Origin: a virus
Lineage: Duplodnaviria > Caudoviricetes
Virus record (IMG/VR): IMGVR_UViG_3300032162_000171
Span: 1 to 43,563 of that record
DNA length: 43,563 bases
Direction: 5' to 3' (one strand)
The notes beneath the pieces were generated by a model. That model did no database searches. It had not been told where the DNA came from and saw only the letters and a program-made list of their open reading frames with translations. A program made the translations under genes and the position numbers. Below, piece after piece: positions 9,153 to 41,479 of this stretch; position 1 is the stretch's first letter, and the number at the start of each line of letters is the position of its first letter.

Positions 9153-9189
9153 TTGTTACATGTAGCAACTATGTTATAGTTGCTACATG
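9153..9189 (+). promoter_or_regulatory. Promoter of the HNH gene overlapped by a 14-bp-arm palindrome; probable leaderless mRNA
   Basis: TTGTTA-16 nt-TATAGT with extended TG; CATGTAGCAACTAT-GTT-ATAGTTGCTACATG ends on the ATG at 9187. Confidence 0.65.
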
Positions 9190-9762
9190 AAATGTGCATG
9201 TGGGTGTGGCGGTGAAATTCCGCCTCGAAAAACAACGTCGCGTAAAGAAGTCTCTTACTTACAGGGACATCATATGCGCGGAATAAAGCGCCCCTATCTT
9301 GCTTATGTCCCAAAGCCTGAAGAAATCCCTTCGGGACGATGCGAGTGTGGTTGCGAAAGAAAGACACCTATCGCAACCTCGACTGCCCGCAAGCATAGGC
9401 ATTTCAAAGGACACCCGATGCCTTGTGTTACCGGTCACAGCAAGGCTACTTGTGCAACAGGCGCTGCACATGCGGGCGGTAGTTGGAAGGGCGGCCGAAT
9501 CTTCAAGGATGGTTATGTCCAAGTAATCGCTTCGCAGGTCGATTCTTCCAAACGGCGATACATTTATGAGCATCGCGTAGTAATGGAAAAGATGCTTGGC
9601 CGTCCTCTTGAGCCGCACGAGCAAGTTCATCACAAGAATGGTAAGCGCGCTGATAACAGACCAGAGAATCTTGAACTGTGGCGTACAAAGTCGCAGCCCG
9701 CTGGAGTGCGCGACGGCGATTACCATTGCCCGGGATGTGTTTGCGCTAAGCCGCATAAGTGA
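9187..9762 (+). CDS. Free-standing HNH homing endonuclease
   Basis: CxCGCG repeats, [13 protein letters not shown]...[22 protein letters not shown] motif; antisense to the tail operon. Confidence 0.9.
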
Positions 9763-9763
9763 T

Positions 9764-10198
9764 TTATGCGAAGGTTGACCTTAGAGCATCACCAGTAACC
9801 TGTAATTCCGCTGTGAACTTCGACACACCGTTGACGGGCGAGGTCTTTCCGTATTTCATCAGAAGCGCCTTGCCCGTGTACTTCGTCGAGCCTGACGCTG
9901 TCCCTTCGGGGCCGTACTCGAAATCGAAGCCTTCGTTCGACGGTTGCCCGGTCGGTTCACTGACGCCCAAAAGAGCATAAAAGTGCGCGTCGATGGCAGC
10001 GTCCCAATTGCCCTGCAAGCTGATCTTGTTATCCTTGAAGCCGACGATGTAAGTCTTCGCCGCTTGCTGAAAAGTGGTGGTGTCGATGATTTCAGCCTCG
10101 CCCGGAAAATCGACGTTGTTGAGTTTGGTTGAGATGTCCGTCAACACGTTGGCAAGCGTGTCGAGTTTGAAGCTGGTTTTGCGACCATGAATAGCCAT
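9764..10198 (-). CDS. Major tail tube protein
   Basis: 144 aa; EIIDTTTF...YIVGFKD and C-terminal FTAELQVTG typical of siphovirus tubes; position before chaperones. Confidence 0.8.
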   Translation of the reverse strand: MAIHGRKTSFKLDTLANVLTDISTKLNNVDFPGEAEIIDTTTFQQAAKTYIVGFKDNKISLQGNWDAAIDAHFYALLGVSEPTGQPSNEGFDFEYGPEGTASGSTKYTGKALLMKYGKTSPVNGVSKFTAELQVTGDALRSTFA

Positions 10199-10276
10199 GA
10201 TTTGAATTTCTCCTGAGGTGTGAGTTGAAGTCGATTAGCGCGCCCGCGCGCTTGAGATGGGAAGCGGCGGATGCTC

Positions 10277-11020
10277 TTATTTCTGGAGAGCGAAGCTGAC
10301 AACAAACGTCGCGCCGTTTGCGCCGGTGAATGTCCAGCTTGCGCGCACGTAGCGCCTGACCGCGCCGTTTGTCTCGATGCGCTCGGCTCCGGCAATGGAT
10401 GCAGCGGTGAATGAGCCGATGGTTGCCCAGCCGGTTGCGCCGTCCGCCGAATCTTCAATGATGATGTTCGCGGAAGTTGTCGCGCCAACGGCAAGCGTAT
10501 TGATTTGCGCGATGAAACCTTTTGTGGTCGCTGCTCCCATGTCGTAAGCAGGAGAGCTGCCCGCCACCGTGCGCGCCTGTTTTGTGAGGAGCAGCGGCCC
10601 CACGCTTATCCCGCGATCAGCCGTTAAATCGCTCATCACCGAAACGACGCCGTTGTAAGGCGAGGTCACGCTGTATTTGCTTTGCTTGGCGAGAAAAAAC
10701 GAAACGCTGTTGCCGAACACGGACAAGCCTTCAATCGCAATCAAAACGTTTTGCGCAATCGTATCGTCGCCGAGAATCGGGCGCAGAACATCATCCGTTT
10801 CCTTCGGATCGCTTGAGACTAACGGGTCTTTAGAGCCGAAGAGTCCCTTGAGGCTCACCTTGCCGTCGCGGTAGCCGACGATGTAGCGCTTCGATTGATT
10901 CGTAAACGTCGTGACGTCGATGATCTCCGCTTCGCCTGAAATGTCGGCTTCATTAAAGAATGCAGACAGGTCGTTTTCGTTGACGACGACGCCGGTGTTT
11001 TTTCCGTGTGTGGCAGCCAT
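10277..11020 (-). CDS. Tail tube-like protein paralog with C-terminal beta-rich extension
   Basis: N-terminal half aligns to 9764..10198 (HGK/HGR, GEAEIIDxTTF, YIVGxxD, TSPxNGV). Confidence 0.7.
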   Translation of the reverse strand: MAATHGKNTGVVVNENDLSAFFNEADISGEAEIIDVTTFTNQSKRYIVGYRDGKVSLKGLFGSKDPLVSSDPKETDDVLRPILGDDTIAQNVLIAIEGLSVFGNSVSFFLAKQSKYSVTSPYNGVVSVMSDLTADRGISVGPLLLTKQARTVAGSSPAYDMGAATTKGFIAQINTLAVGATTSANIIIEDSADGATGWATIGSFTAASIAGAERIETNGAVRRYVRASWTFTGANGATFVVSFALQK

Positions 11021-17747: not shown

Positions 17748-19256
17748 CTATGCCGGAACGTTGTCCGCCGGATTATTGTTTACAGTTGGGTCAGTTCCAG
17801 CATCAGCCGGAAGAACGACGTGGCGCTCATTATCAAGCGCCACGTCTCGCACAATATCTGGCTCGGTGGCGAGATTCTTTCCGAAGATTCGCTCAAGTTC
17901 GGTCTTCACGTCGAAGTCAACGCCAAGCTTGCCCGCGCGCTTCAAGAGTTCGAGCATCGTTTCAAGCGATAATTGTTTGTCCGTGACGAACAGGCCTAAG
18001 GCACGCATTTCATCGACGCTTAAAACAAGACGGTCATATTCGACGTTCGGCTCGAAGGAACCCGTGCCGGCACGCCCGGCCATTTTCTCATGCGCTTCAT
18101 ACGCGTTCTGGGTCGCGCCCTGCAAAGATTTCACCATCAGGGAGATTTCCGAGTTCGATTCCGCTGAGTCGATGATCTCGCCGGTCGCGGTCTTCGGCCC
18201 CGGAGTCTTCTCCGCGAGCATGGAAAGCGCCGCCATCGCCATATCGACTTTGATAGTTTCGATGTCCTTCATCGCCGCTTCAATGGCATGGCCTTGATGC
18301 TCTGCGAAGCCGATCATCGAGTGCTCGCCCGTTAAATCAATGAGCGCCGACGGGCCGATGGCTTCAATAGGAACTTGCGTATTGCGGTCGCGCGCCCACA
18401 TCACCGGCACATTAGCGAAGTGCAAGATATTATCGAGATCGCTTTGCTTCTGGTAAAGCTGGATCGCCATGATAGCGAGTTCGAGAAGCGGCGGCTCGCT
18501 AATTAACGGCGCGCACTCTTCGCCGTAAACAGGAAAGATCGGAATGTAGTCGAGGCCGCTTTTGCCTTCTCGTTCCAGATCGAGTTGGCGTCCGTTCTTG
18601 CGATACAGTTTCCATGATCCGGGACGCAGCACGCGAAAGCGCGTGACCTGCTTTTCGCCGAAGTCGCCTTCGCCTTCCATTGTCATTTCCCGAAACACGA
18701 TCAGCGTCAGCACGGTTTTGCCGTTAATGTTTTCCGTGCGCCAGTTAATCGCCTGTCCTTTTTTGTAGAGAATCCAGTAGGGGCGTAAATCCGCGTCGTG
18801 TTCGTCCTTGAGAGTCGGCGCGGGCGCGAGCGTGTCGCTTTCCTCAAGTGGTGGCGGCATCTCGACATAGATAAAGGCGTGGCCGTCCTTCGCCGCGCTT
18901 TGAAGCACGTTGCGCGCGAAGACTTCGCCCTTTGTTCCGGCGAGGTCGATGTTTTTCCAGTCATTGATAAATCCATCGGAAACCTCTTTCCAATTCGGAT
19001 CGCGGCGAAAGACGAGGCCGACGAGTTTGCCGAGCGCGCGCTTGAACACCGGCGAGAAGACGGAGCGCGTTACACGCGATTGATACTCGTCGTCGCCCTC
19101 CATCGGGTTCTTTGGCAAATATTCTTGCCTGCAATCGCGAATGCGCGGCGATCCTTCGTAAACATCTTCGACGATCTTGATGGTGCGCATTGCTGCTTTG
19201 TATGCGGCGCATTGAAAGTCGGCGCGGTCTTTGGTGAGTGAGAGTGAGATTGCCAT
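17748..19256 (-). CDS. Portal protein (DUF4055-like)
   Basis: 502 aa after terminase; YLPK...Y..R, NIDLAG, RPYW...INWR, PPLLELA...QKQSD, KTAT motifs. Confidence 0.88.
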   Translation of the reverse strand: MAISLSLTKDRADFQCAAYKAAMRTIKIVEDVYEGSPRIRDCRQEYLPKNPMEGDDEYQSRVTRSVFSPVFKRALGKLVGLVFRRDPNWKEVSDGFINDWKNIDLAGTKGEVFARNVLQSAAKDGHAFIYVEMPPPLEESDTLAPAPTLKDEHDADLRPYWILYKKGQAINWRTENINGKTVLTLIVFREMTMEGEGDFGEKQVTRFRVLRPGSWKLYRKNGRQLDLEREGKSGLDYIPIFPVYGEECAPLISEPPLLELAIMAIQLYQKQSDLDNILHFANVPVMWARDRNTQVPIEAIGPSALIDLTGEHSMIGFAEHQGHAIEAAMKDIETIKVDMAMAALSMLAEKTPGPKTATGEIIDSAESNSEISLMVKSLQGATQNAYEAHEKMAGRAGTGSFEPNVEYDRLVLSVDEMRALGLFVTDKQLSLETMLELLKRAGKLGVDFDVKTELERIFGKNLATEPDIVRDVALDNERHVVLPADAGTDPTVNNNPADNVPA

Positions 19257-19339
19257 TGCTGAATCCTGTCCGGTTGGTGAGCGGGAGGTTAAAAGATTGG
19301 ACTCGAAACATTGGTTTGAAACCAACTATTTGCAAGTCG

Positions 19340-22300
19340 TTAGCGGCGGAATTTTGTGACGGTGAAGTTGTCGGCGGCTTTGAGGTCAGTGGTTGCGACG
19401 CGATAACGTAAACCGTCGCAGTTATGCACGAGCACGCCGTTCGCGTAATACTCTGGCGAGTCTTCAACGGTGAGATTGTAAACGGGTTGTGGTTCTGCTT
19501 TTGATGTGAGCGTATGCACACGGCAGAGAGCAGCATTGTTTTGCTTGGTGGGGTTTGGCCTCGAACTGCTTTTGGCAGTTAAGGCAAGATCGTTTGTCAT
19601 TACGAACAAGTCGTTGAGCAGAGCATGTCCGCGAACAGTAAGTCTTTGGAGTGTATTTATTGCAACTGAATTCCTTCTCGCACTGTGGACAGACCTTTGT
19701 GATGTTATCGAGTCCGTTTTCGCGCCTCCAGCGGGACTTGCAGTTGTTAGAACAGAATCGATCAGACTTGCGCCGTCCCATTGATTCAAACTTTTTGCCG
19801 CATTGATCGCAGATGCCCGCAAGCGGCTTGCGATCCTTGTAAATCTCTTTTCCGTGTTCGCTGTGCCATGCGCGACCTTCAGGTGAGCGATGCCACTCAA
19901 CTGCGCCGCGCCGCATCTTTTCGAGAAAACCTTTAGTGCTGCTTTTATAGGCGATTGCTTGTCGCTGCCGGGCTGTCGGAATGTGTTTGTCGTTATGCTC
20001 GCGCGCTGGAATTGCTTCGAGATTTTCGATGTTGTTATTAAGAGCATTACCATCCCGATGATGGACATGATAGCCCTCTGGAATAGTTCCGTGATGAAAT
20101 TTGTAGATGTCTCTATGTAATGCTCCGCAACCCTTTCTTTTATCGCCGATGTCGCACCTGAAATAGTTGCGGTCACCGAACTGCTTTGCTTCGGGATAAC
20201 GCCGATAGACAATCCCATTGAAGCGCACGCGCTCGATACGCGGTGCCCCGGAAGGCAAACTGATGATCTCCATTGCGGGTTCTCCCTTACATCTAATAGA
20301 GCATCATTATACCGCAAAGCATCCATTTGAATAAAATCTTTTCCTTTGACGTAAACCGGATGGTTGCCTGTGCCGATGAGTGTGCGTCCGTCGTTAAGCA
20401 TAAGAGTTTTAACTGGAGCGGAAGGGTTCGTTAAGCCCGCCGCCAGCACGCGCTTATATCCTTTGCGCGTGAGCACAAGATCGCCTGCTTTGATTGTTTC
20501 AATTGGCCGTTCGCCGATGAGGGTTTCAATCATTGTGCCCGCGACAAAGCAACCGTGATCGTTCTTCTTCACAGGCTTGCCGTCCAGCCCGTAAATGTAG
20601 CTCCAGATTTCTTCGAGCGTGCTGCTCGGCAAATGCTTCGCTTCAAGCTCTTTGTCTTTCGTCCACACGGCATCGCGGCGAACATAGATGCGCGCCCGCC
20701 CGTCGGCGCGTTTCTTGAGCCTTGTGCGCACGGCGTCGCAACCGGCTTCGACATCCTTCTTCGCAGCTGTGGTCGAGAGGCGCGCAAAGCGGCGATTCTT
20801 GCGAAGGTGTTTAATGAGCGTAGCGCGATCTTCGGCGTCGTGATCGGTAATGATTTCAGAGAAGTCCGGCTCATCGAAGTGGTCACAGATTTTAATGATT
20901 TCTGCCGCATGGTCTTCGACGATCTTTTGCGACATGTAGATTTCGCGGTAAAGGTAAAGCCTGCCGTCAGAGTCTTCCGCCCAGAATTGACAGACAAAGG
21001 GATTGGAGAAACCGAAGTCGATGGAGAGCGAACGCCGCCAACTTCGCGGCGGCTCCGTCGTGTAATCCGCGCCGTCGCCGAAGCGCCCCTTTTTGTCATC
21101 GTAAACAAGATTCCACTCGTCGTCCCAGCCGTTGAAAACATGTGTCTCTTCTTCAAAGCCGTCGAAGACCATCCCTTCTGTCATGCACCAGATACCGTCA
21201 CGAAAGCGCTTTAAGCGCGCGCCCGTTAAATCGTCGAGCGCGTTCATGTACACTTTGCCTTTGAGTCGCCACTTGCCGGTTTCCTGATTGAAAAAGAGCG
21301 GGTTGTCGGTGTGTTTGGCCGCGATCATGCGCAGCTTTCCGGCGTCACGGCGTTTGATGAGGTAGTGCATCGGAGAATCCGGGTTGCACATAAAGAGAAG
21401 CTGCTGGTAGCCCGCTTTGTAGTTTCTCAGGCGCGTCGTCAATGATTCATGATTATCTTCGCTCGCCTCCGTCCCTTCATCGAAAAGAATAAAGTCCCAT
21501 TCGGTAGACATTACTTTCGCTGACTTATCCATGCCCGCAATGGCAGCAATGGATTTGTTCGGATAACGATATTCCTGATCGCCGCCGTGATAGTAAACAT
21601 GGCGGTTCGAGGCTTTCTCGGAGAAGCGTTCGCCGAGAATTTTTTGCTCGTAGGTGACAAGCGTTGATTGCACAAGTGAGACGCGCGTCTTGCGCAAGAT
21701 CAGGCAGCGGCAGCCCGGGTAGTACCGCGCAAACGTATCGAGCTTCAAAAGTCCCCCGAAACTTTTGCCTGTGTTGTGATGCCAGATACCCTCGGCAAGA
21801 TAATGCTCTGCACCCGGTACATGAAGATCATAGTAATCATCAGTGCGCTCGTAAGTAATACTTGTGACCTGTTCCCATAGTCCCTTATAATGCGAACTCG
21901 AAGGAGTAAACAAAGATGCCGAAAAAGGGTTACAAACTGCTAACACACGAGCAGAAGAAAGAAATTGTGAATAGTTATCTGGGGACGCATTCAGCAAGAG
22001 AGACGGCACGCCGTCTTGGTTACACACCTCAGCGTGTGTACTACGTGTTAAAGCGAAATGGTTTTGAAAAACTAGAGAAAGCTCCACGCGGTGCTTGTTA
22101 TCGAAACTTCGACCTTGTGAAGCAGTTAGCCCGTGAGGGTTGGTCGCTGTCAGAAATTGCGCGTCGCGTTGGTTCAAAAAATCAATTGGTTGCCAAATTC
22201 CTTCGGTGTAATAACATTCCTCACACACGCTTTGACCAGAGCGGCAAAAATAATCCGGCTTGGAAGGGAGGAAGGATGCTTGAGAAAGGAAAATACGTTT

Positions 22301-22921
22301 TGATTCATCAACCAGACCATCCTTTTGCAAACCGACATGGTTATGTACGTGAGCATCGGCTTGTGATGGAAAAAGCGCTTGGCCGCTATCTATCATCGGG
22401 CGAAGTTGTGCATCACAAAAATGACAATGGTTTGGACAATCGTTTATCGAATCTTGAAGTACATCCTTCAAACGGGCATCACTTGAAAGCGACTCTGACG
22501 GGCAAACCTCACGCAGTGTCGGAGAGAGGGCGGGAGAAGCTGCGCGCAATTGGTCGCCGACTGCAATCTCGGAGAGCTTTAGCCAGCCACACTTAGTTTC
22601 AAATAGATGATCTTTGGTTACTAAGACTGACGCGCCTGATGCTGTTATAACTCGATAGAGTGCTGCCCTTCCTTTTAGAAAAGGAACCGTGGCGAGTTGC
22701 ATCCCGCCTTGTGTTAGCACGACGGGTGCTCTCCTTTGCGAGTGTAAGTCGCAAATTGAAGTGTGCGCGCCGGTCAGTGGTTCATATATCCGCGTTTCGC
22801 CTGCGACACATCCCGCCGGGCCGGAATGCACAACTTCGCGGCGCGTTTCATCCATCACTTCGCGCGCCGTGCCGTAAAGAATGAAGTCGGGGGTCTTTTT
22901 AGTCGACGTCAGGGTTGTCAT
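19340..22921 (-). CDS. terL: Terminase large subunit precursor with two inteins (1193 aa; about 470 aa after splicing)
   Basis: Walker A GPAG|TGKS restored by removing intein 1; Walker B ILFDEGTE; motif III CNP; nuclease SIDFGFSNP and NDHG|CDGLRY restored by removing intein 2. Confidence 0.93.
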   Translation of the reverse strand: MTTLTSTKKTPDFILYGTAREVMDETRREVVHSGPAGCVAGETRIYEPLTGAHTSICDLHSQRRAPVVLTQGGMQLATVPFLKGRAALYRVITASGASVLVTKDHLFETKCGWLKLSEIAVGDQLRAASPALSPTLREVCPSESLSSDARLKDVLQDSINDCPNHCHFCDAQLRPMIDSGQALFPSQADAHVHNHVGLQKDGLVDESKRIFLSQASFLPSKPDYFCRSGQSVCEECYYTEGIWQPIDFLNQRDAQFLTATNPHGLTASQGRSFDNKHRVELSLVFQNHFALTRSTHAEVCNQDGVPSLLLNASPDNYSQFLSSARVLAVCNPFSASLFTPSSSHYKGLWEQVTSITYERTDDYYDLHVPGAEHYLAEGIWHHNTGKSFGGLLKLDTFARYYPGCRCLILRKTRVSLVQSTLVTYEQKILGERFSEKASNRHVYYHGGDQEYRYPNKSIAAIAGMDKSAKVMSTEWDFILFDEGTEASEDNHESLTTRLRNYKAGYQQLLFMCNPDSPMHYLIKRRDAGKLRMIAAKHTDNPLFFNQETGKWRLKGKVYMNALDDLTGARLKRFRDGIWCMTEGMVFDGFEEETHVFNGWDDEWNLVYDDKKGRFGDGADYTTEPPRSWRRSLSIDFGFSNPFVCQFWAEDSDGRLYLYREIYMSQKIVEDHAAEIIKICDHFDEPDFSEIITDHDAEDRATLIKHLRKNRRFARLSTTAAKKDVEAGCDAVRTRLKKRADGRARIYVRRDAVWTKDKELEAKHLPSSTLEEIWSYIYGLDGKPVKKNDHGCFVAGTMIETLIGERPIETIKAGDLVLTRKGYKRVLAAGLTNPSAPVKTLMLNDGRTLIGTGNHPVYVKGKDFIQMDALRYNDALLDVRENPQWRSSVCLPGHRVSSACASMGLSIGVIPKQSSSVTATISGATSAIKERVAEHYIETSTNFITELFQRAIMSIIGMVMLLITTSKISKQFQRASITTNTFRQPGSDKQSPIKAALKVFSKRCGAAQLSGIAHLKVAHGTANTEKRFTRIASRLRASAINAAKSLNQWDGASLIDSVLTTASPAGGAKTDSITSQRSVHSARRNSVAINTLQRLTVRGHALLNDLFVMTNDLALTAKSSSRPNPTKQNNAALCRVHTLTSKAEPQPVYNLTVEDSPEYYANGVLVHNCDGLRYRVATTDLKAADNFTVTKFRR
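19421..20551 (-). mobile_element. Intein 2 (377 aa) in the terminase nuclease domain
   Basis: Starts CFVAGTMIET, block B GTGNHPVY, ends VYNLTVEDSPEYYANGVLVHN, +1 Cys. Confidence 0.93.
19464..20273 (-). CDS. HNH endonuclease with three zinc-ribbon repeats, nested in the -1 frame of intein 2
   Basis: LHRDIY...VHHRDGNALNNNIENLEAI...H; three CxxC...CSxxC units; own TATAAT (20306-20311) and AGGGAG RBS. Confidence 0.9.
   Translation of the reverse strand: MEIISLPSGAPRIERVRFNGIVYRRYPEAKQFGDRNYFRCDIGDKRKGCGALHRDIYKFHHGTIPEGYHVHHRDGNALNNNIENLEAIPAREHNDKHIPTARQRQAIAYKSSTKGFLEKMRRGAVEWHRSPEGRAWHSEHGKEIYKDRKPLAGICDQCGKKFESMGRRKSDRFCSNNCKSRWRRENGLDNITKVCPQCEKEFSCNKYTPKTYCSRTCSAQRLVRNDKRSCLNCQKQFEAKPHQAKQCCSLPCAYAHIKSRTTTRLQSHR
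21773..22810 (-). mobile_element. Intein 1 (346 aa) in the terminase Walker A motif
   Basis: Starts CVAGETRI, block B VTKDHLF, ends YYDLHVPGAEHYLAEGIWHHN, +1 Thr. Confidence 0.93.
21916..22596 (+). CDS. HTH-HTH-HNH endonuclease nested antisense in intein 1
   Basis: Two HTH-like segments, NNPAWKGGR, EHRLVME...VHHKNDNGLDNRLSNLEV; own TTGTGA-18 nt-TATAAT (21862-21891) and AAGGAG RBS (21901). Confidence 0.9.
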   Translation: MPKKGYKLLTHEQKKEIVNSYLGTHSARETARRLGYTPQRVYYVLKRNGFEKLEKAPRGACYRNFDLVKQLAREGWSLSEIARRVGSKNQLVAKFLRCNNIPHTRFDQSGKNNPAWKGGRMLEKGKYVLIHQPDHPFANRHGYVREHRLVMEKALGRYLSSGEVVHHKNDNGLDNRLSNLEVHPSNGHHLKATLTGKPHAVSERGREKLRAIGRRLQSRRALASHT

Positions 22922-23657
22922 TGACTTCTCCCTTCTCATTAACAGCGTCAGGCTTGGCCGCGTCCCATTTTTCAGGATTGAAGCCCTGTACGAGCACAAT
23001 GTTAGCTGCGCCCGGCGTGTTGACGTTGATCTCCTGCGGCTCGTGCAATCCGAGCAGCTTATCAACACGTTCTTGCGCGCGGTCGGCGACAAGGAGAAAG
23101 CGCGGATCACCGAGCAGTTGAGATTTCTTGCGCCTAATCACATGCCGCGTTGCGCCCGGCAGTTTTATCTTTCTCTTGAGATCGTTTACTGAGAGTAGAG
23201 CTTCGGCGCTTCCATCGACTTGCTCCATCAACGCGCCGACGGTTGTATTCAGTTCGACGGTCTGTCTGTCCTCGTGAATCTGGTTGACTTCGCCGATAGA
23301 GCGTTCGTAGCCTTCGTAAGCCGTCGAGTGCAGCTCGTAAGCGCGGGCAAGCTGCATGCTCAAATGTTCTTCGTATTTCTGACGCGACTCTTTGCGCCAA
23401 TCCGCGCGGATTTTCTTGAAGTCGTAATCGATCATCTGCCGCGTGAGTTTGTAAGGCGCAGGCGGAGCATTTGGAATTACCGAATCAGCATCGAGGGCAT
23501 CGAGTTCTTTGAGAGCTTCTTTGTATTCAGTTGTGCGACGCTGGAAAAGAATGTCGGCGATGCGCTGGTGGGTAATGTTGGGAAAGCGCGTGCGAAGTTG
23601 TGCGAGTTCGACACGATCACGTTCGGTTTGCCATTCTTCGCGCTTGTTTTCGGCCAT
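22899..23657 (-). CDS. Putative terminase small subunit
   Basis: Directly upstream of and overlapping terL; HTH-like THQRIADIL; GDPRFL...ERVDKLLGL motif. Confidence 0.7.
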   Translation of the reverse strand: MAENKREEWQTERDRVELAQLRTRFPNITHQRIADILFQRRTTEYKEALKELDALDADSVIPNAPPAPYKLTRQMIDYDFKKIRADWRKESRQKYEEHLSMQLARAYELHSTAYEGYERSIGEVNQIHEDRQTVELNTTVGALMEQVDGSAEALLSVNDLKRKIKLPGATRHVIRRKKSQLLGDPRFLLVADRAQERVDKLLGLHEPQEINVNTPGAANIVLVQGFNPEKWDAAKPDAVNEKGEVNDNPDVD

Positions 23658-24417: not shown

Positions 24418-25221
24418 TTACCGATTCCTTTGAATGAGGTTGTAGAACTCGTCGCGCGCGGTTGGACGGAGGCGGAAGACGCCGCGCATCACGGCGTTCG
24501 ACATCGAGCCTTGAGTCTTAATGCCGCGCATGGTCATGCAGGTGTGCATTCCGTTGGCACACAAAACGGCGACATTGCGCGATTCGGTGATGCGCTCGAT
24601 TTCGTCGGCGATTTGCACGGCCATGTTTTCTTGAGTTTGCAGGCGGTGACTGCACTGGTGGGCGATGCGGGCGAATTTGGAGAGGCCGAGCACGCGACCA
24701 TTGGCGATGTAGCCGCAGGAAACGTCGGTGTAGAAGGGAAGCAAATGGTGTTCGCAGAGCGACCAGACCCGCATCCCGGAGACGGCGACCATTTGATCGG
24801 AAACAAGTTCCTGATCGAACGTCGTGTCGGTTGTGCCGGGCGCGTATTCCATAAAGTCGCGCCAGAAGCGGGCGACGCGCGCCGGAGTATCGGAGAGGCC
24901 GGAGCGTGAAGGATTTTCGCCGACAGCTTCGAGAATCATGCGGACGGCGAGTTCGATTGTTTCCGTATCGACGGTCTTCTTTTCATGGGCGAGGGCGATG
25001 ACAGCTTCGCCTAATTCATCGCGTTCGGGCGTCTGCGTCGCGGCGGTTGATTCGATTATTGCGCCGACGAAGTCCGGGATGATTTCGGTTACTTCCTGAA
25101 GTGTGGAAGCCGCCAGACCGTTGGCGCGCGCCGTGATGTCGGCCTGTGCGCCTTCAAGAATGTCGAGGCCTGTGGTGAGTGATTCGGGGGTGAGTGATCC
25201 GGGGTTGTCGAGTTTGCTCAT
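24418..25221 (-). CDS. folE: GTP cyclohydrolase I with N-terminal extension
   Basis: GLSDTPARVAR, SLCEHHLLPF, GLSKFARI, RLQTQE, HTCMTMRG motifs. Confidence 0.95.
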   Translation of the reverse strand: MSKLDNPGSLTPESLTTGLDILEGAQADITARANGLAASTLQEVTEIIPDFVGAIIESTAATQTPERDELGEAVIALAHEKKTVDTETIELAVRMILEAVGENPSRSGLSDTPARVARFWRDFMEYAPGTTDTTFDQELVSDQMVAVSGMRVWSLCEHHLLPFYTDVSCGYIANGRVLGLSKFARIAHQCSHRLQTQENMAVQIADEIERITESRNVAVLCANGMHTCMTMRGIKTQGSMSNAVMRGVFRLRPTARDEFYNLIQRNR

Positions 25222-25227
25222 AAAGTT

Positions 25228-25521
25228 TTAAGGAAGCTCGGATTGCTCGATGTGCTTGTCCGGCTTCACAGGAGGCGCGGGCGCGGGGTGAGGTGCGCCC
25301 GCGTCTTCCGGTCGCGGGGTGAGAGTTGATAGGTTTGCTCTGTGTAGCGCTGTCTTGTGCTCGTAAGCGTGACTGTTTCTATTGAGCAATCGTTCTCGAT
25401 AAGAAGCAGTTAAATTCGATTTTGCGAGCAGTTTGTTGTCGCGTTTGATGGTGCGTTCATAGGAAAGCTGGAGATGCCTTACAAGGAAGCAAGCGATGAA
25501 ACAAAGTAAGTCTCTAAACAC
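25228..25521 (-). CDS. Hypothetical protein
   Basis: 97 aa, fills the queE-folE gap and overlaps the queE stop. Confidence 0.45.
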   Translation of the reverse strand: MFRDLLCFIACFLVRHLQLSYERTIKRDNKLLAKSNLTASYRERLLNRNSHAYEHKTALHRANLSTLTPRPEDAGAPHPAPAPPVKPDKHIEQSELP

Positions 25522-26296
25522 CTTGTTTGTTCCCCCATATCAACGTATGAATTTGCGGGATAATCGACACGTCAAACCACTTGTCGCGGCTCACGCGTTC
25601 GACGAGCCAGCGCGTGCGCGCCATCACGCCTTCCGTGTCGAACTCATCGTTTTGCGAGTTGTACTTTGCGCCTTCGGGCGGCGTGTGATTACCGGGCGTG
25701 AGGAAAAAGGGAAATCTTTGCGGAAAAAACATTCGGTCTAACTTGCCTGAAAGAGAGCGCGCGAAGTTGTAATCCTCTTCTGTCATTACAACGACTTTTA
25801 TTGAGAGTCCCGATACATTGCTTTTGTTCAGTACACTGCGCGCTCCGGGACTGTAAGCATCAATGCACTCTTCCAATCGAGGTTCGCGGAAAGACATCCC
25901 GGACGACGGCGGCTTTGGAGAAAGAATCAAATAATCGAGTTTGTGGAACCAAGTCTTTGCAATCGACCCTTGCGTTTCCAGCGCGAACTTATAACCGCGT
26001 TCATGACCGAGATCGATTAAAGACGCGAGCGGTTGCAGCGCAGGGTTGCCGCCGGAGAGCGTGATAAGAATCGGTTTGCCTTCAGTGAGCGCAGCCACTT
26101 CTGCTAGCACTTGTGTTGCGTCGAGCTTGCGCCAGTTGGCTTTGTTCGCCGGGTCAACGGCGTGCATCGAATCACACCATGCGCAACGAAAGTCGCAGCC
26201 GCCTGTACGCACAAAGACGGTGGGACGCCCGACGAGTGCGCCTTCGCCTTGAATCGTGAGAAAGGCCGGTTCAGCAATGGAAATGAGTTCGCGCAT
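25514..26296 (-). CDS. queE: 7-carboxy-7-deazaguanine synthase (radical SAM)
   Basis: TIQGEG...VFVRTGGCDFRCAWCDS, TLSGGNPALQ, LETQG, SPKPPSS, PQIH. Confidence 0.95.
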   Translation of the reverse strand: MRELISIAEPAFLTIQGEGALVGRPTVFVRTGGCDFRCAWCDSMHAVDPANKANWRKLDATQVLAEVAALTEGKPILITLSGGNPALQPLASLIDLGHERGYKFALETQGSIAKTWFHKLDYLILSPKPPSSGMSFREPRLEECIDAYSPGARSVLNKSNVSGLSIKVVVMTEEDYNFARSLSGKLDRMFFPQRFPFFLTPGNHTPPEGAKYNSQNDEFDTEGVMARTRWLVERVSRDKWFDVSIIPQIHTLIWGNKQGV

Positions 26297-26302
26297 TGAC
26301 CT

Positions 26303-27304
26303 TTAAGCTTCCAGAAGAAATGAGCGCCACGCTTTGAGAGCGCGCCGGTTGGAGGAAGCGAGCGCGCGGCGATTGAGCCAGCAGCCGAAGCGTCCCGCCA
26401 TCTCTGCCATCTGCATTGAGAGAACAATGTCTTCGGCAGAGTTCGGATCGGCGCAGAAGATGCCCGGTAGCCATTCGATTTCATGTGAGCCGACAACCGG
26501 CACACCGCCCGCAACCGCGTCCGCCGTGACGATATTGAAGGTTTCCGTGTAGGAGACTTGGAGCGACAAATCCATTCCGGTGATCACGCGCTTGAATTCG
26601 TCGTGCGTGTACCACTCATGTTCGACGAGCGCGTGCTGCGAAGCGGCGAAAAGAGAGCGCAGATTCTTGAGCGTTTCTTCGCCGCGCTGTTCGCAGCGCG
26701 CCGCGTTGACGTGAAAACAAAGCGTGCGATTGGTTCGCTCCGCATAGATGAGCGCGGCGACGGCCTGCATGAGTTGATTCTTGAGCGGGCGAATTGCGCC
26801 GAAGCAGCCGACATCGAGGAATTCACGACCTTGAGCCTTTGCGCGCTGGCGCGGAGGGGCATCCGTGAGCGGATAAATGTTCGGCAAATAATGAACCTCG
26901 CCGTCGAAGAGTTCGGAGAGTTCGGCGGCCGTGCGCGCGCTGTTGGCGGCAAGCTCTGTCATGAGGAAGCCAGTTGCTATGCGGCGCGTCCATTCCATCG
27001 CGATGCCTTCGGAAGCGAGAAACGGAGTCTTTGAATGAACGCGCACGAAAAAGCGGACTGACGGATGCAAGCGCGCTAACTCGGTGAATTTTTCAGGCAC
27101 GACCCACAGCGCTTCGATAACAACGTGCGTCGGGCGATGCTCGGCGATGGCTCGGTCAATGCAATTGTTGTCAATGACTTCAACGGCTGCGCAGGGAATG
27201 CCGAAGGCTTTGAGCGCAGCGGCGAGCAGGCGCGCGGAATTGAGCAGCCCTGAGCTTGCGCCGTAAAGTGTATTGAAGCGTTTGGTCAGGAAGAGAATTT
27301 TCAT
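26303..27304 (-). CDS. GT-B fold (GT4-like) glycosyltransferase
   Basis: MKILFL start, FGAIRPLKN, DLSLQVSYTETFNIVTADAVAGGVPVV donor-binding motif. Confidence 0.8.
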   Translation of the reverse strand: MKILFLTKRFNTLYGASSGLLNSARLLAAALKAFGIPCAAVEVIDNNCIDRAIAEHRPTHVVIEALWVVPEKFTELARLHPSVRFFVRVHSKTPFLASEGIAMEWTRRIATGFLMTELAANSARTAAELSELFDGEVHYLPNIYPLTDAPPRQRAKAQGREFLDVGCFGAIRPLKNQLMQAVAALIYAERTNRTLCFHVNAARCEQRGEETLKNLRSLFAASQHALVEHEWYTHDEFKRVITGMDLSLQVSYTETFNIVTADAVAGGVPVVGSHEIEWLPGIFCADPNSAEDIVLSMQMAEMAGRFGCWLNRRALASSNRRALKAWRSFLLEA

Positions 27305-27356
27305 GTGGTAAAGCGGCGGGCGCGGGAGCAAGTACAAATGAGGAACGAGGAAAAGT

Positions 27357-27839
27357 TCAGTATCTAAATGGCTGACAGTCATCCCTGAACAATTTGCGAA
27401 TCTCGTCGAAGGTTGGCTGTGAGCAGCCAACCTGAATTTCTGTTTCGAGCTGGACGTGCAAATTAACCGCTTTTACTTTTTCGGGTAGCCGATATTCAGC
27501 CCATGTTTTACCTGTTTCACTAACGCGCACAGCGAGAAGCGGCCAGCTTTGTGTTCCCGAAATCCATTCGTAAAAATGGCGCGCGAGATTCTCTGCTGTC
27601 GGCTGAAACGTGAAGACATCGTTTAAGTGGCGATGATCGCAACGCGATTGAACGTACTCGTCGAAAACCTTTAATTCGTTGTAATCGACAACGAAGCCGT
27701 ACTCGTTTGTTTCCTCGGCTGCGAGTGAAACTTCTACGACATATCCATGACCGTGAAGACGCATACATTGATGGCCTTCCGGCAGCCCTTTTAATTGGTG
27801 AGACGCTTCAAATCGAAACTGTTTCGTTATCGTGAACAT
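27357..27839 (-). CDS. queD: 6-carboxy-5,6,7,8-tetrahydropterin synthase
   Basis: FEASHQL...CMRLHGHGY, DHRHLND, PTAENLA, VSET. Confidence 0.95.
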   Translation of the reverse strand: MFTITKQFRFEASHQLKGLPEGHQCMRLHGHGYVVEVSLAAEETNEYGFVVDYNELKVFDEYVQSRCDHRHLNDVFTFQPTAENLARHFYEWISGTQSWPLLAVRVSETGKTWAEYRLPEKVKAVNLHVQLETEIQVGCSQPTFDEIRKLFRDDCQPFRY

Positions 27840-28019
27840 GGGAAGTAATCTGGTAAGTAATCTGTGGAGTTACTGGTAAGCTAAACAGTGGGGTTCAGTG
27901 ATTGTCTATACAGATAAGGGATTGAGGAGTGCATCATCTTCGCGAGTGCTCGACTAGATGCGTCACGAGTCTTACGGCTTAATTTCAGGATGACCTGCCG
28001 CCTGCGAGTGAGGTGAAAA

Positions 28020-28754
28020 TCACACGAGGTGAATCGCCGGGGAACTTCCTGCGGGTGTAACGCCGTCCGGCGCGACAATCACATAATCCGAAGCGTAATC
28101 CGTTAAGTCTTCGACGCCTGCGAGTTGGAACGCCTCACGCCTTTCCGTGCAAGTGCCACAGCGTCCGCAGTGAACATCCCCGCCTTCGTAGCAGCTCCAC
28201 GTCAAATGCAGCGGCACGCCCAAAGAATCGCCGAGCACGACGATGTCGGCCTTCGACGCGGAAATGAACGGGCGCAGAAAACGCACTTGCTGCCAGTCGC
28301 ACAGCATCGCTGCCGCGTCCATCACCGCCGCGAATTCCGGCCTGCAATCCGGGTAGATCGCGTGATCGCCGCCGTGCGCGCCATACGCGACGAAGCCGAA
28401 GCCTTGCGAGATGGCGTAGCCGATAGCGATTGACAACATAATCATGTTGCGGTTCGGCACGACCGTCGCCTTCATGCTTTCTTCTTCGTAGTGGCCGTGC
28501 GGCACCGCGACATCCGGGGAAGTCTGCGAACTGCCCGTGAGCAAATGCTTGATGCCGGAGAGGTCTGCGATTTCGAGATCGAGGCCTAAACGCTCGCAGA
28601 ATTCCTGCGCGCTTTCCAGTTCTTTGACGTGGCGCTGGCCGTAGTTGATCGAAAGCGGCTTGAGTGTCGCGCCCTTTGAGGTGAGCAAATAAAGCAGCAC
28701 CGTCGAGTCAAGTCCGCCCGAATAAATAGGGACAACGTTATTTTCCGTTCGCAT
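28020..28754 (-). CDS. queC: 7-cyano-7-deazaguanine synthase
   Basis: [29 protein letters not shown]...CGRCGTC. Confidence 0.96.
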
Positions 28755-29805
28755 TCTTTTTCTTGTCCTTCACGGCCTTCTTGCCGAAAGCCTGTTCCAT
28801 GTTGCGGCCGCCCATCGAACCGCCTTCGCCTTCGGTTGCACAGATCGCTAGCCGAACGCTTGGCTCGCTCTCCGGCGCAGAGAAAGCAGAGTTGTTGCGG
28901 ATGTTATTTGCAGGACTTCCGACGGCGAGGCGCACGACCGGATTAGGTTCTGTGAGTTTTCCGAGTTCACTCATTTGCTTACGCCAGCGGAACTGCGCTT
29001 TGCGCTCCACTTCCAGATACCACTCGACTTCTGCGCGCAGGTTCTGGTTCGAGCCGCGCACGCTCATTTGACCGAACGTATTCCATCGTCCGAAGCGACA
29101 CGGCCCCATCTCCCAATTCGTCGCGTCTACTGAATGCCACGGCAACGCCAAGATATGTTTCTCGCTGCCGTAACCGAAGCCGTGCAATTTCTTCGGCCAC
29201 ACGCGCGCGAAACATTGCTCGGCGAACTTCAACTTGCCGTCGCCGCGCATCAATGCGACGCCGCCGAGCGCGACTTTCGGATAATCGGCGGCTATGTTAA
29301 TGAGCGCCTCCCACGGCTCGCCGTAGTGAAAGCAGGGAATCGCAGGCACGCCTTGACGCCACATCTCTTCGCAGTTTTTGAGAGACGCGCGCCAATCGCC
29401 GATTACGTCGAGCGCAAACACTTCCGTAAGCTGCGGGTCGGTTTCGAGCAGGTGCTTGGCGGTGTCGATGTAGTCCTGAAGTTTGATTACAGTGCCGGAG
29501 TTGTGAGCGGAGAATGCGCCGGAATCGAGCACCCAATCCCGAAAGTGATAGCGATGGCGATTCTTGAGAAAGCCTTTGATGTACACGAAAGAAACGAGCA
29601 GCGCCGGGGCGAGAATTGTTCCTTTATCTGAGCAATCGTAGTGCATGGGATAGCGGTTTTTACCGGATGCGTTCGAGCATGAGATCATCGCGTGCGTCGC
29701 AGCTAAACGAACGGTAGGCGCGTCGAGTGCTTTGTAGGCATTAACGGGGCCGGGATTGTAAGCGAGGCGCACGCTCGGAGATGATGTTTCTATTTTCGCA
29801 GCCAT
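28738..29805 (-). CDS. DpdA/TGT-like 7-deazaguanine DNA transglycosylase (putative)
   Basis: [38 protein letters not shown]-barrel motifs; adjacent to queC. Confidence 0.75.
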
Positions 29806-29996
29806 TCGACTTGTGAGTGAGTGATAAAGAAAACGGCACCGCAATCCCATGAGCAATCAATCGACGGATCGCAACTCCACGTTTCATCTTCGTGCGTGGT
29901 GATAGCGAAACCTTCGAGGCTTAATCGTTGATGGCACTTCGGGCAATTGATTGCTTTTACTTCCGCGTTGCCCGTCGGTTCGTCTACGGCGTCCAT
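29790..29996 (-). CDS. Small Cys-rich protein (DUF6527-like)
   Basis: CPKC...PSIDC..DC...[10 protein letters not shown]; GGAGGAG RBS and TAATG overlap. Confidence 0.6.
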   Translation of the reverse strand: MDAVDEPTGNAEVKAINCPKCHQRLSLEGFAITTHEDETWSCDPSIDCSWDCGAVFFITHSQVEWLRK

Positions 29997-41330: not shown

Positions 41331-41444
41331 TCCCGCATTATAGAAATCTTGAAACTATTTACAAATGTTTATCTTTCGTCCGTGCCGATGGCGAGTTTCT
41401 CGGACGCTATTTAGACGGGCAAATTGCTCGATAAATCTTTGCGA

Positions 41445-41479
41445 AAACTGTTGACAGCGTACACAGTTTGGTTGACAAT
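41445..41479 (+). promoter_or_regulatory. Sigma70-type promoter with flanking inverted repeat
   Basis: TTGACA(41451)-17 nt-GACAAT; AAACTG...CAGTTT inverted repeat around the -35. Confidence 0.55.

Follow-up and report, generated by a model that had tools for sequence, protein, structure and literature searches.

The terL gene, which encodes the large terminase subunit (TerL) of a tailed phage, carries an intein whose DNA encodes a nuclease on the opposite strand. The gene lies in a 43,563-nucleotide stretch of DNA, positions 1 to 43,563 of IMG/VR record IMGVR_UViG_3300032162_000171 (Duplodnaviria; Caudoviricetes), which is called the window below. Intein 1 interrupts the Walker A motif of TerL on the minus strand and overlaps a complete plus-strand gene for an endonuclease with two helix-turn-helix (HTH) modules and an HNH core, preceded by a promoter-like sequence. 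We consider it probable that this is a two-strand intein, in which a minus-strand splicing insert is paired with a separately transcribed plus-strand nicking HNH enzyme that homes to empty Walker A alleles. The coordinates are collected in Table 1.

Intein 1 has the parts expected of a splicing element. As proposed in an initial annotation made from the sequence, it splits the Walker A motif as GPAG/TGKS: its 346 codons begin with Cys, end with His-Asn and are followed by Thr, and GPAGTGKS is contiguous in two annotated intein-free TerLs (41-42% identity). The residue set of class 1 inteins is complete (Cys1, the TxxH of block B, the Asp of block F, the terminal His-Asn and the +1 Thr), and C1, H68, D328 and N346 are invariant across 87 inteins. 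An AlphaFold model built on an 87-sequence alignment folds the two ends into a Hint splicing domain and leaves residues ~94-305 unstructured. Searched against PDB, the model returned 26 matches at E<=0.001; the matches listed are all inteins, those of RecA and DnaB among them, and the best E is 1.7e-7. The central region had been called unrecognisable in frame, and this description holds, with Intein_splicing as the only in-frame Pfam match and the middle predicted to be unstructured. There is no in-frame nuclease match between the splicing segments, unlike in a canonical bifunctional intein, and the host frame is unbroken around the nuclease gene (a single frame, open for 1265 codons between stops), unlike in a split intein or a fractured gene. 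Judging from these residues and from TerL being essential, intein 1 probably splices.

The plus-strand HTH-HTH-HNH open reading frame (ORF) of 226 aa is likewise intact, and Pfam recognises HTH_28 (E 6.7e-11) and HNH_3 (E 1.6e-9) in it. The model of its product has a mean pLDDT (a model-confidence score) of 89 and consists of two HTH modules, a beta-beta-alpha core and a C-terminal helix. The gene covers intein residues 72-299 and so extends beyond the central region; its final ~20 codons run into the predicted Hint beta-strands of residues 72-93. All 92 family representatives have the HNH stop codon no later than intein residue 83. H167, N175 and H189 are invariant in 52 HNH protein homologues, so the HNH residues are kept in homologues, a point on which the initial annotation had staked its reading. 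In a separate comparison the EVVHHKND stretch was itself a search seed, and its invariance there is partly circular. The catalytic and metal-binding roles of the His and Asn residues, assigned by I-HmuI numbering, are presumably those of their I-HmuI counterparts. In I-HmuI the HTH is C-terminal; in the enzyme described here two HTHs precede the core.

For which of the two proteins is the central DNA kept? We compared 144 pairs at 2-30% divergence, drawn from 122 distinct sequences. Variation was greatest at the third position of the HNH codons (0.186 vs 0.054 and 0.048), and identity was higher in the HNH frame than in the intein frame for all 144 pairs and for all 19 independent pairs (92% vs 79%). 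The central DNA is therefore kept for the HNH protein, with the intein-frame peptide as a by-product. These comparisons support the view that the antisense ORF is a real gene under selection.

The intein frame is also constrained. It crosses the HNH ORF without a stop, as was noticed at the outset: the three antisense registers of the gene contain 12, 0 and 16 stops, against a mean of 8.3 in codon-order shuffles, which give zero about once in 10,000. In this register a stop always arises on the opposite strand when a Phe codon precedes a codon that starts with A. Among the best 52 of 120 listed HNH protein homologues (570 found), picked without regard to DNA context, none of the 174 Phe is part of a Phe-[IMTNK] pair, vs 36.5 ± 5.2 in shuffles, and Ile-[IMTNK] occurs 12 times vs 94. 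The intein register of non-nested HNH genes is interrupted by 4.0 stops per 100 codons. That the nested loci have zero antisense stops results from their selection and carries no weight; the independent tests include the dipeptide counts and the shuffle of the window's codons. Such dipeptide avoidance indicates that stops are kept out of the intein frame.

Both TTGTGA-18-TATAAT and AAGGAG are present upstream of the HNH ORF as first reported, and the -35 box falls within the C-terminal splicing segment of the intein. By itself the promoter match is weak (4 sites, where shuffled versions of the 5-kb region give 2.6 ± 1.7); it is one of just 3 plus-strand sites scoring >=10/12 in the 43.6-kb window. 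Conservation is more informative. Among 92 representatives, the clean-ended members of 99 clusters with the window included, 24 have a match of >=10/12 near the intein 3' end, whereas 4.8 ± 1.9 are expected from synonymous resampling of intein codons (maximum 10 in 200 runs). Since the representatives are related, the 24 matches speak for inheritance under selection, not for 24 independent events. The -10 box lies at an offset of 110-114 in 22 of the 35 sites scoring >=9/12, five relatives have a perfect TTGACA-18-TATAAT at the offset found in the window, and GGAG precedes the start codon in most close relatives. These data support a promoter that is kept in the family and is presumably active. 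The proposed antisense effect of the HNH transcript on terL mRNA, raised in the initial annotation, follows from the geometry of the locus only.

An operator with autorepression was also considered, as a 9-nt spacer stretch (21868-21876) matches the empty insertion junction. A match of this length is reached in 2 of 90 loci (mean 3.86 vs 3.75 in control zones); it is not conserved and is probably due to chance.

The antisense layout belongs to a large family. A single-HNH query found 26 viral loci, 24 of which have the HNH gene antisense inside an intein-bearing terminase frame, and wider searches brought the family to at least 249 HNH loci. Among the 249 matches listed, 146 are full antisense inteins (L099 is the contig of the window itself), 7 are partial, 3 have intein matches without a spanning 300-codon frame, 15 have a long antisense frame without an intein match, and 78 are not nested; all 156 listed loci with intein matches share one register. 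The 146 full antisense inteins form at least 116, 99 and 83 clusters at 95, 70 and 50% identity, respectively. When the HNH score is >=150 bits, 141 of 156 listed loci are full antisense inteins. Starting from the other partner, the N-terminal part of Hint found 30 loci: 27 with an antisense HNH, 2 mini-inteins and 1 truncated locus. As single-sequence queries for loci, neither the whole intein nor the middle extein found a relative, whereas alignment-based searches did find relatives. The contention that an indel error could not produce the antisense arrangement was borne out, as 145 other loci share the layout, which rules out an assembly or indel artefact. Among cultured phages, 115 records match the HNH, and none covers >80% of its length.

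Two further groups of nested HNH genes were seen. N6/N4 DNA methyltransferase genes house a shorter subfamily of zinc-finger-type HNHs, antisense and in the same register, without intein motifs and with a stop-free host frame (L139, L144, L147, L148, L149 (=L181), L150, L152, L154, L156, L158 and L159); Cys clusters flank the insert. At L084:1829-5410 (-), a more distant HNH lies antisense, again in the same register, in an intein with a divergent splicing domain, and the gene also has an in-frame LAGLIDADG intein. L084 may be an independent capture.

How did the composite arise? On a tree rooted with an outgroup (midpoint rooting was unstable), 82 intein-borne HNHs form one clade with support 92. 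That there is one clade in one register suggests one ancient capture, after which came spread and, now and then, loss or escape. Two related mini-inteins of ~136 aa (L360 and L363) occupy the terminase Walker A site without an HNH, and the splicing-domain tree puts L360 within the family, with moderate, unstarred support. The initial annotation had envisaged that a free-standing HNH invaded a mini-intein and had proposed looking for the matching mini-intein in relatives. Mini-inteins were found and such an invasion is plausible for the family as a whole, but the placement of L360 fits loss better than an ancestral state, and the idea of a local capture does not sit well with one clade, one register and L360 within the family. 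The phage of the window most likely received the finished composite. The other two HNH genes of the window were considered as donors; because they are only distantly related (36% over 39 aa; 40% over 95 aa), neither is the donor.

The intein is scattered among its hosts. Among the best 80 terminase relatives, the Walker A site is empty in 77 and occupied by an intein of this kind in 1; the other 2 were not parsed. On quick trees of 20 occupied and 70 empty TerL exteins, with the empties sampled near the window only, the intein label changes 9 times, 6 of them forced by starred branches. The sister TerL of the window (L276, 55% identity, support 99) is empty, and a single clade of intein-bearing TerLs is rejected (p-AU 4.8e-5), which makes the distribution on these quick trees a patchy one. 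In addition, the cassette occurs in the P-loops of RecD-like, SNF2, clamp-loader, SMC-like and AAA_33 hosts, and all insertion sites parsed lie within or adjoining a Walker A-like motif, with position shifts of 1-2 residues. For example, L114 (a TerL) and L203 (a helicase) are 65% identical in the splicing domain, 59% in the HNH core and 20% in the extein. The occurrence in several ATPase hosts fits homing, and the patchy spread fits the earlier suggestion that the HNH mobilises the intein; homing itself we infer.

The two-strand intein could work as follows. Translation of terL would pass through a loop of ~210 residues, predicted to be disordered, that is the reverse complement of the HNH gene; the frame through it is open. 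Class 1 splicing by the Hint domain, whose residues and predicted fold are in place, would then restore GPAGTGKS. From the conserved promoter within the coding sequence of the intein C-terminus, a host sigma-70-type RNA polymerase would transcribe the HNH gene. By analogy with its family and in keeping with its distribution, the enzyme would bind through its HTH modules and nick the empty allele of a co-infecting phage or prophage with its I-HmuI-like core, and repair would copy the intein. The one clade and one register would go back to a single origin, when an HNH gene was captured into a Hint gene, and later spread would have carried the composite among P-loop ATPase genes, although the direction of these events is conjectural. 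A bolder extension is possible but doubtful: the family may be an old lineage in which the antisense HNH recognises Walker A codons and jumps among ATPase genes, and whose independent promoter provides an anti-competitor nuclease in the prophage or in early infection together with an antisense brake on the terminase.

Several observations count against the two-strand reading. A promoter match of >=10/12 is absent in 68 of the 92 representatives. At L231:480-773 (-), at a contig end, the N-terminal part of the intein is followed by a stop before the antisense HNH; this is one of the three loci with intein matches and no spanning frame, the other two being cut by contig ends, and it is possibly a split, broken or mis-assembled member. 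The intein-borne clade also holds 3 of 59 non-nested HNHs (L130 (L130/L206), L178 and L192), which are possibly escapes from inteins. The similarity to I-HmuI is middling, in that I-HmuI is first in a VIA-align search of the HNH model (Z 6.5, root-mean-square deviation 3.1, 71 residues) but is tied with HTH matches, the sequence match has E 0.014 (the sole nuclease among 14 sequence matches), and Foldseek found no match to the model at E<=0.001. A near-identical cassette in divergent exteins was not found among the loci compared, so recent homing is not shown. Lastly, agreement between the HNH and Hint trees is weak (rho 0.25; of 45 and 39 supported splits, 10 are shared), perhaps because of poor resolution or module exchange. 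As to the three non-nested HNHs, the intein register contains no stops over the match in L192 (GC 60%) and 12 in L130.

The weak agreement of the trees would also suit an active selfish HNH that uses the intein as a safe landing site and cuts elsewhere, the intein spreading by co-conversion or hitch-hiking. Walker A insertion points that vary by 1-2 residues amid very different exteins, and the related HNH subfamily that sits antisense in methyltransferases without an intein, can be read in the same way, and mobilisation of neighbouring elements in trans by free-standing HNH genes is described in the accessible part of PMC2988022. What makes this unlikely is the constancy of the pairing, with an antisense HNH in 27 of 30 Hint-query loci and full antisense inteins at 141 of 156 high-scoring HNH loci among the matches listed, and the fact that all parsed insertion sites lie at or beside a Walker A-like motif. 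A benefit to the phage would be a different reason for retention, if the nuclease or antisense RNA, expressed in the lysogen or early in infection from a promoter of host type, attacked intein-free competitors or damped terS/terL, with homing secondary. The window is a provirus record, few sigma-70-type matches in it are better than the HNH promoter, which points against the late operon, and interference competition by an intron endonuclease has been published (PMC11620839, in the text available). However, the intein is rare and not fixed (1 of the best 80 TerL relatives), a conserved operator was not found, terminator-like sites are at chance level (5 vs 7.1), and the need to transcribe the opposite strand is a simple explanation of the promoter, which leaves this account distinctly improbable.

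It is also conceivable that the family is active and that the HNH of this copy is a silent or decaying relic, inherited vertically. There is no close relative from which selection on its own branch could be read (the nearest HNH homologues of the window copy are 45-59% identical), and its -35 box departs from consensus at two positions, many relatives having TTGACA or TTGATA. Nevertheless, the ORF is full-length, all invariant residues, the ribosome-binding site and the -10 box are intact, and the sister TerL (L276) is empty; moreover, stops are expected to accumulate quickly in an unexpressed antisense ORF (bioRxiv 10.1101/2025.01.02.630785, as far as its available text goes). A relic is thus very improbable. 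We therefore retain the two-strand intein as the probable reading.

The same terL carries two kinds of non-canonical HNH intein. Its second intein, close to the end of the nuclease domain, contains another HNH gene, which runs on the same strand and out of frame. A relative of this second HNH lies in a terminase intein at L364/L365, in the same relative frame and at a different site; L366 does not have this layout.

As for the wider setting, the portal, head and tail genes are on the minus strand of the window. The start of terL is likely ATG 22921, from alignment and an upstream GGGAG. A 7-deazaguanine cluster (24418-29856, minus strand; FolE, QueE, QueD, QueC and TGT-like genes) adjoins the terminase; it likely serves DNA modification, and nuclease sensitivity could be affected. 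Divergent sigma-70-type promoter matches lie at 41337-41479 (minus at 41364, plus at 41451), upstream of the anti-restriction gene region. Two neighbouring ORFs at 9764-11020 (-) both match major tail protein families, and a third HNH_3 gene, free-standing, stands opposite the tail genes at 9187-9762 (+), with an imperfect palindrome immediately upstream of its start.

Table 1. Features of the terL region of the window (positions in the 43,563-nucleotide stretch)
Feature	Position	Strand	Remarks
Portal protein gene	17748..19325	-	Downstream of terL
terL (terminase large subunit)	19340..22921	-	Precursor of 1193 aa with two inteins; 470 aa once both are removed
Intein 2 of TerL, 377 aa	19421..20551	-	C...VHN/C; close to nuclease domain end (DHG/C)
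Second HNH gene, 269 aa, Cys-rich tail	19464..20273	-	Inside intein 2, same strand, out of frame; TATAAT 20306-20311 and AGGGAG upstream
Intein 1, class 1, 346 aa	21773..22810	-	In TerL Walker A, GPAG/TGKS; C1, T65-K-D-H68, D328, H345-N346, +1 Thr
Hint splicing domain, C-terminal part	21773..21889	-	Residues 308-346; pLDDT 96-99 over residues 311-346
Sigma-70-type promoter-like site TTGTGA-18-TATAAT	21862..21891	+	Offset from intein end same as in relatives
Shine-Dalgarno-like AAGGAG	21901..21906	+	9 nt before HNH ATG
Antisense HTH-HTH-HNH endonuclease gene, 226 aa	21916..22596	+	Two HTH modules (~10-100), HNH core (~115-195; H166, H167, N175, N179, H189), C-terminal helix
Hint splicing domain, N-terminal part	22532..22810	-	Residues 1-93; pLDDT 95-98 over residues 1-90
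Both strands encode predicted folded protein	22532..22596		HNH C-terminal helix vs Hint strands at intein residues 72-93
Likely terminase small subunit	22899..23657	-	By position; without Pfam match; would underlie a long antisense transcript

An intein with an antisense nuclease, called extremely rare in print, is the normal state of a widespread intein family found in uncultured phages, and gene callers and intein surveys would class such inteins as decayed. The family offers a natural test set for the model of splicing first and nuclease captured later, for ~700 nt that are readable on both strands, and for intein switching via the shared P-loop. A nuclease on its own promoter would uncouple homing from host-gene expression. 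With two different out-of-frame HNH genes in its two inteins, this terminase is a convenient case.

Antisense nucleases in inteins have been seen before. Synechocystis DnaX and Chloroflexus SpoVR-like inteins have antisense LAGLIDADG endonucleases (Gorbalenya 1998, via the available text of bioRxiv 10.1101/2025.01.02.630785). There too, the endonuclease lies opposite a full intein, but the nuclease family differs and these are isolated cellular cases. In mycobacteriophages, the inteins TerL1-a and TerL1-b sit in the P-loop of the terminase (Kelley et al. 2016, PMC5050341, in the part accessible); TerL1-a lies between the P-loop Lys and Thr and TerL1-b one residue away, whereas the intein here lies three residues before the motif end (G/TGK), and the accessible part of that paper does not mention an antisense HNH for either.

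Other nested nucleases resemble one aspect of the present element or another. I-HmuI (PDB 1u3e) shares the HNH_3 core; it is carried by a group I intron, and the HNH here by an intein. In the available text of PMC2988022, I-HmuI is described as a nicking enzyme. The ShiLan domain (Arsenault et al. 2025, PMC11855218, in the part available), an HNH hidden out of frame in a phage methylase, is likewise a nested and separately translated nuclease ORF, but it is on the same strand and without a splicing domain, unlike the antisense HNH intein. Fractured genes (Dassa et al. 2009, PMC2677866, in the accessible text) also have a separately translated nuclease ORF amid host-gene parts; however, there the inteins are split and a GIY-YIG or Vsr-like gene stands between the two ORFs, whereas the intein frame here is continuous.

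The nearest precedent is found in actinobacteriophages, whose non-canonical inteins include antisense LAGLIDADG or VSR-like endonucleases (Gosselin, Arsenault and Gogarten, bioRxiv 10.1101/2025.01.02.630785). In the part of this preprint that is available, 63 of 784 inteins are non-canonical and HNH is listed only in frame. A literature search, run mostly beyond subscription journals, found no paper on an antisense HNH intein, and the supplements of Gosselin et al. might hold unlabelled cases. According to the available text, the shared features are a contiguous intein with an unstructured in-frame middle, an opposite-strand nuclease ORF, terminase hosts, a proposed origin by invasion of a free-standing endonuclease, and a patchy distribution that is read as ongoing homing. 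In contrast to the antisense types given there, the nuclease of the present intein has HNH_3 and HTH matches only and is neither LAGLIDADG nor VSR-like; it is an I-HmuI-type HNH with HTH modules, found in at least 99 clusters and in several ATPase families, and a dedicated promoter is not described in the part of the preprint available. The element is therefore likened to the published antisense-nuclease inteins, yet distinct from them because the nuclease type differs: antisense LAGLIDADG and VSR nucleases in inteins have already been published, and what sets the present one apart is the HNH type with HTH modules.

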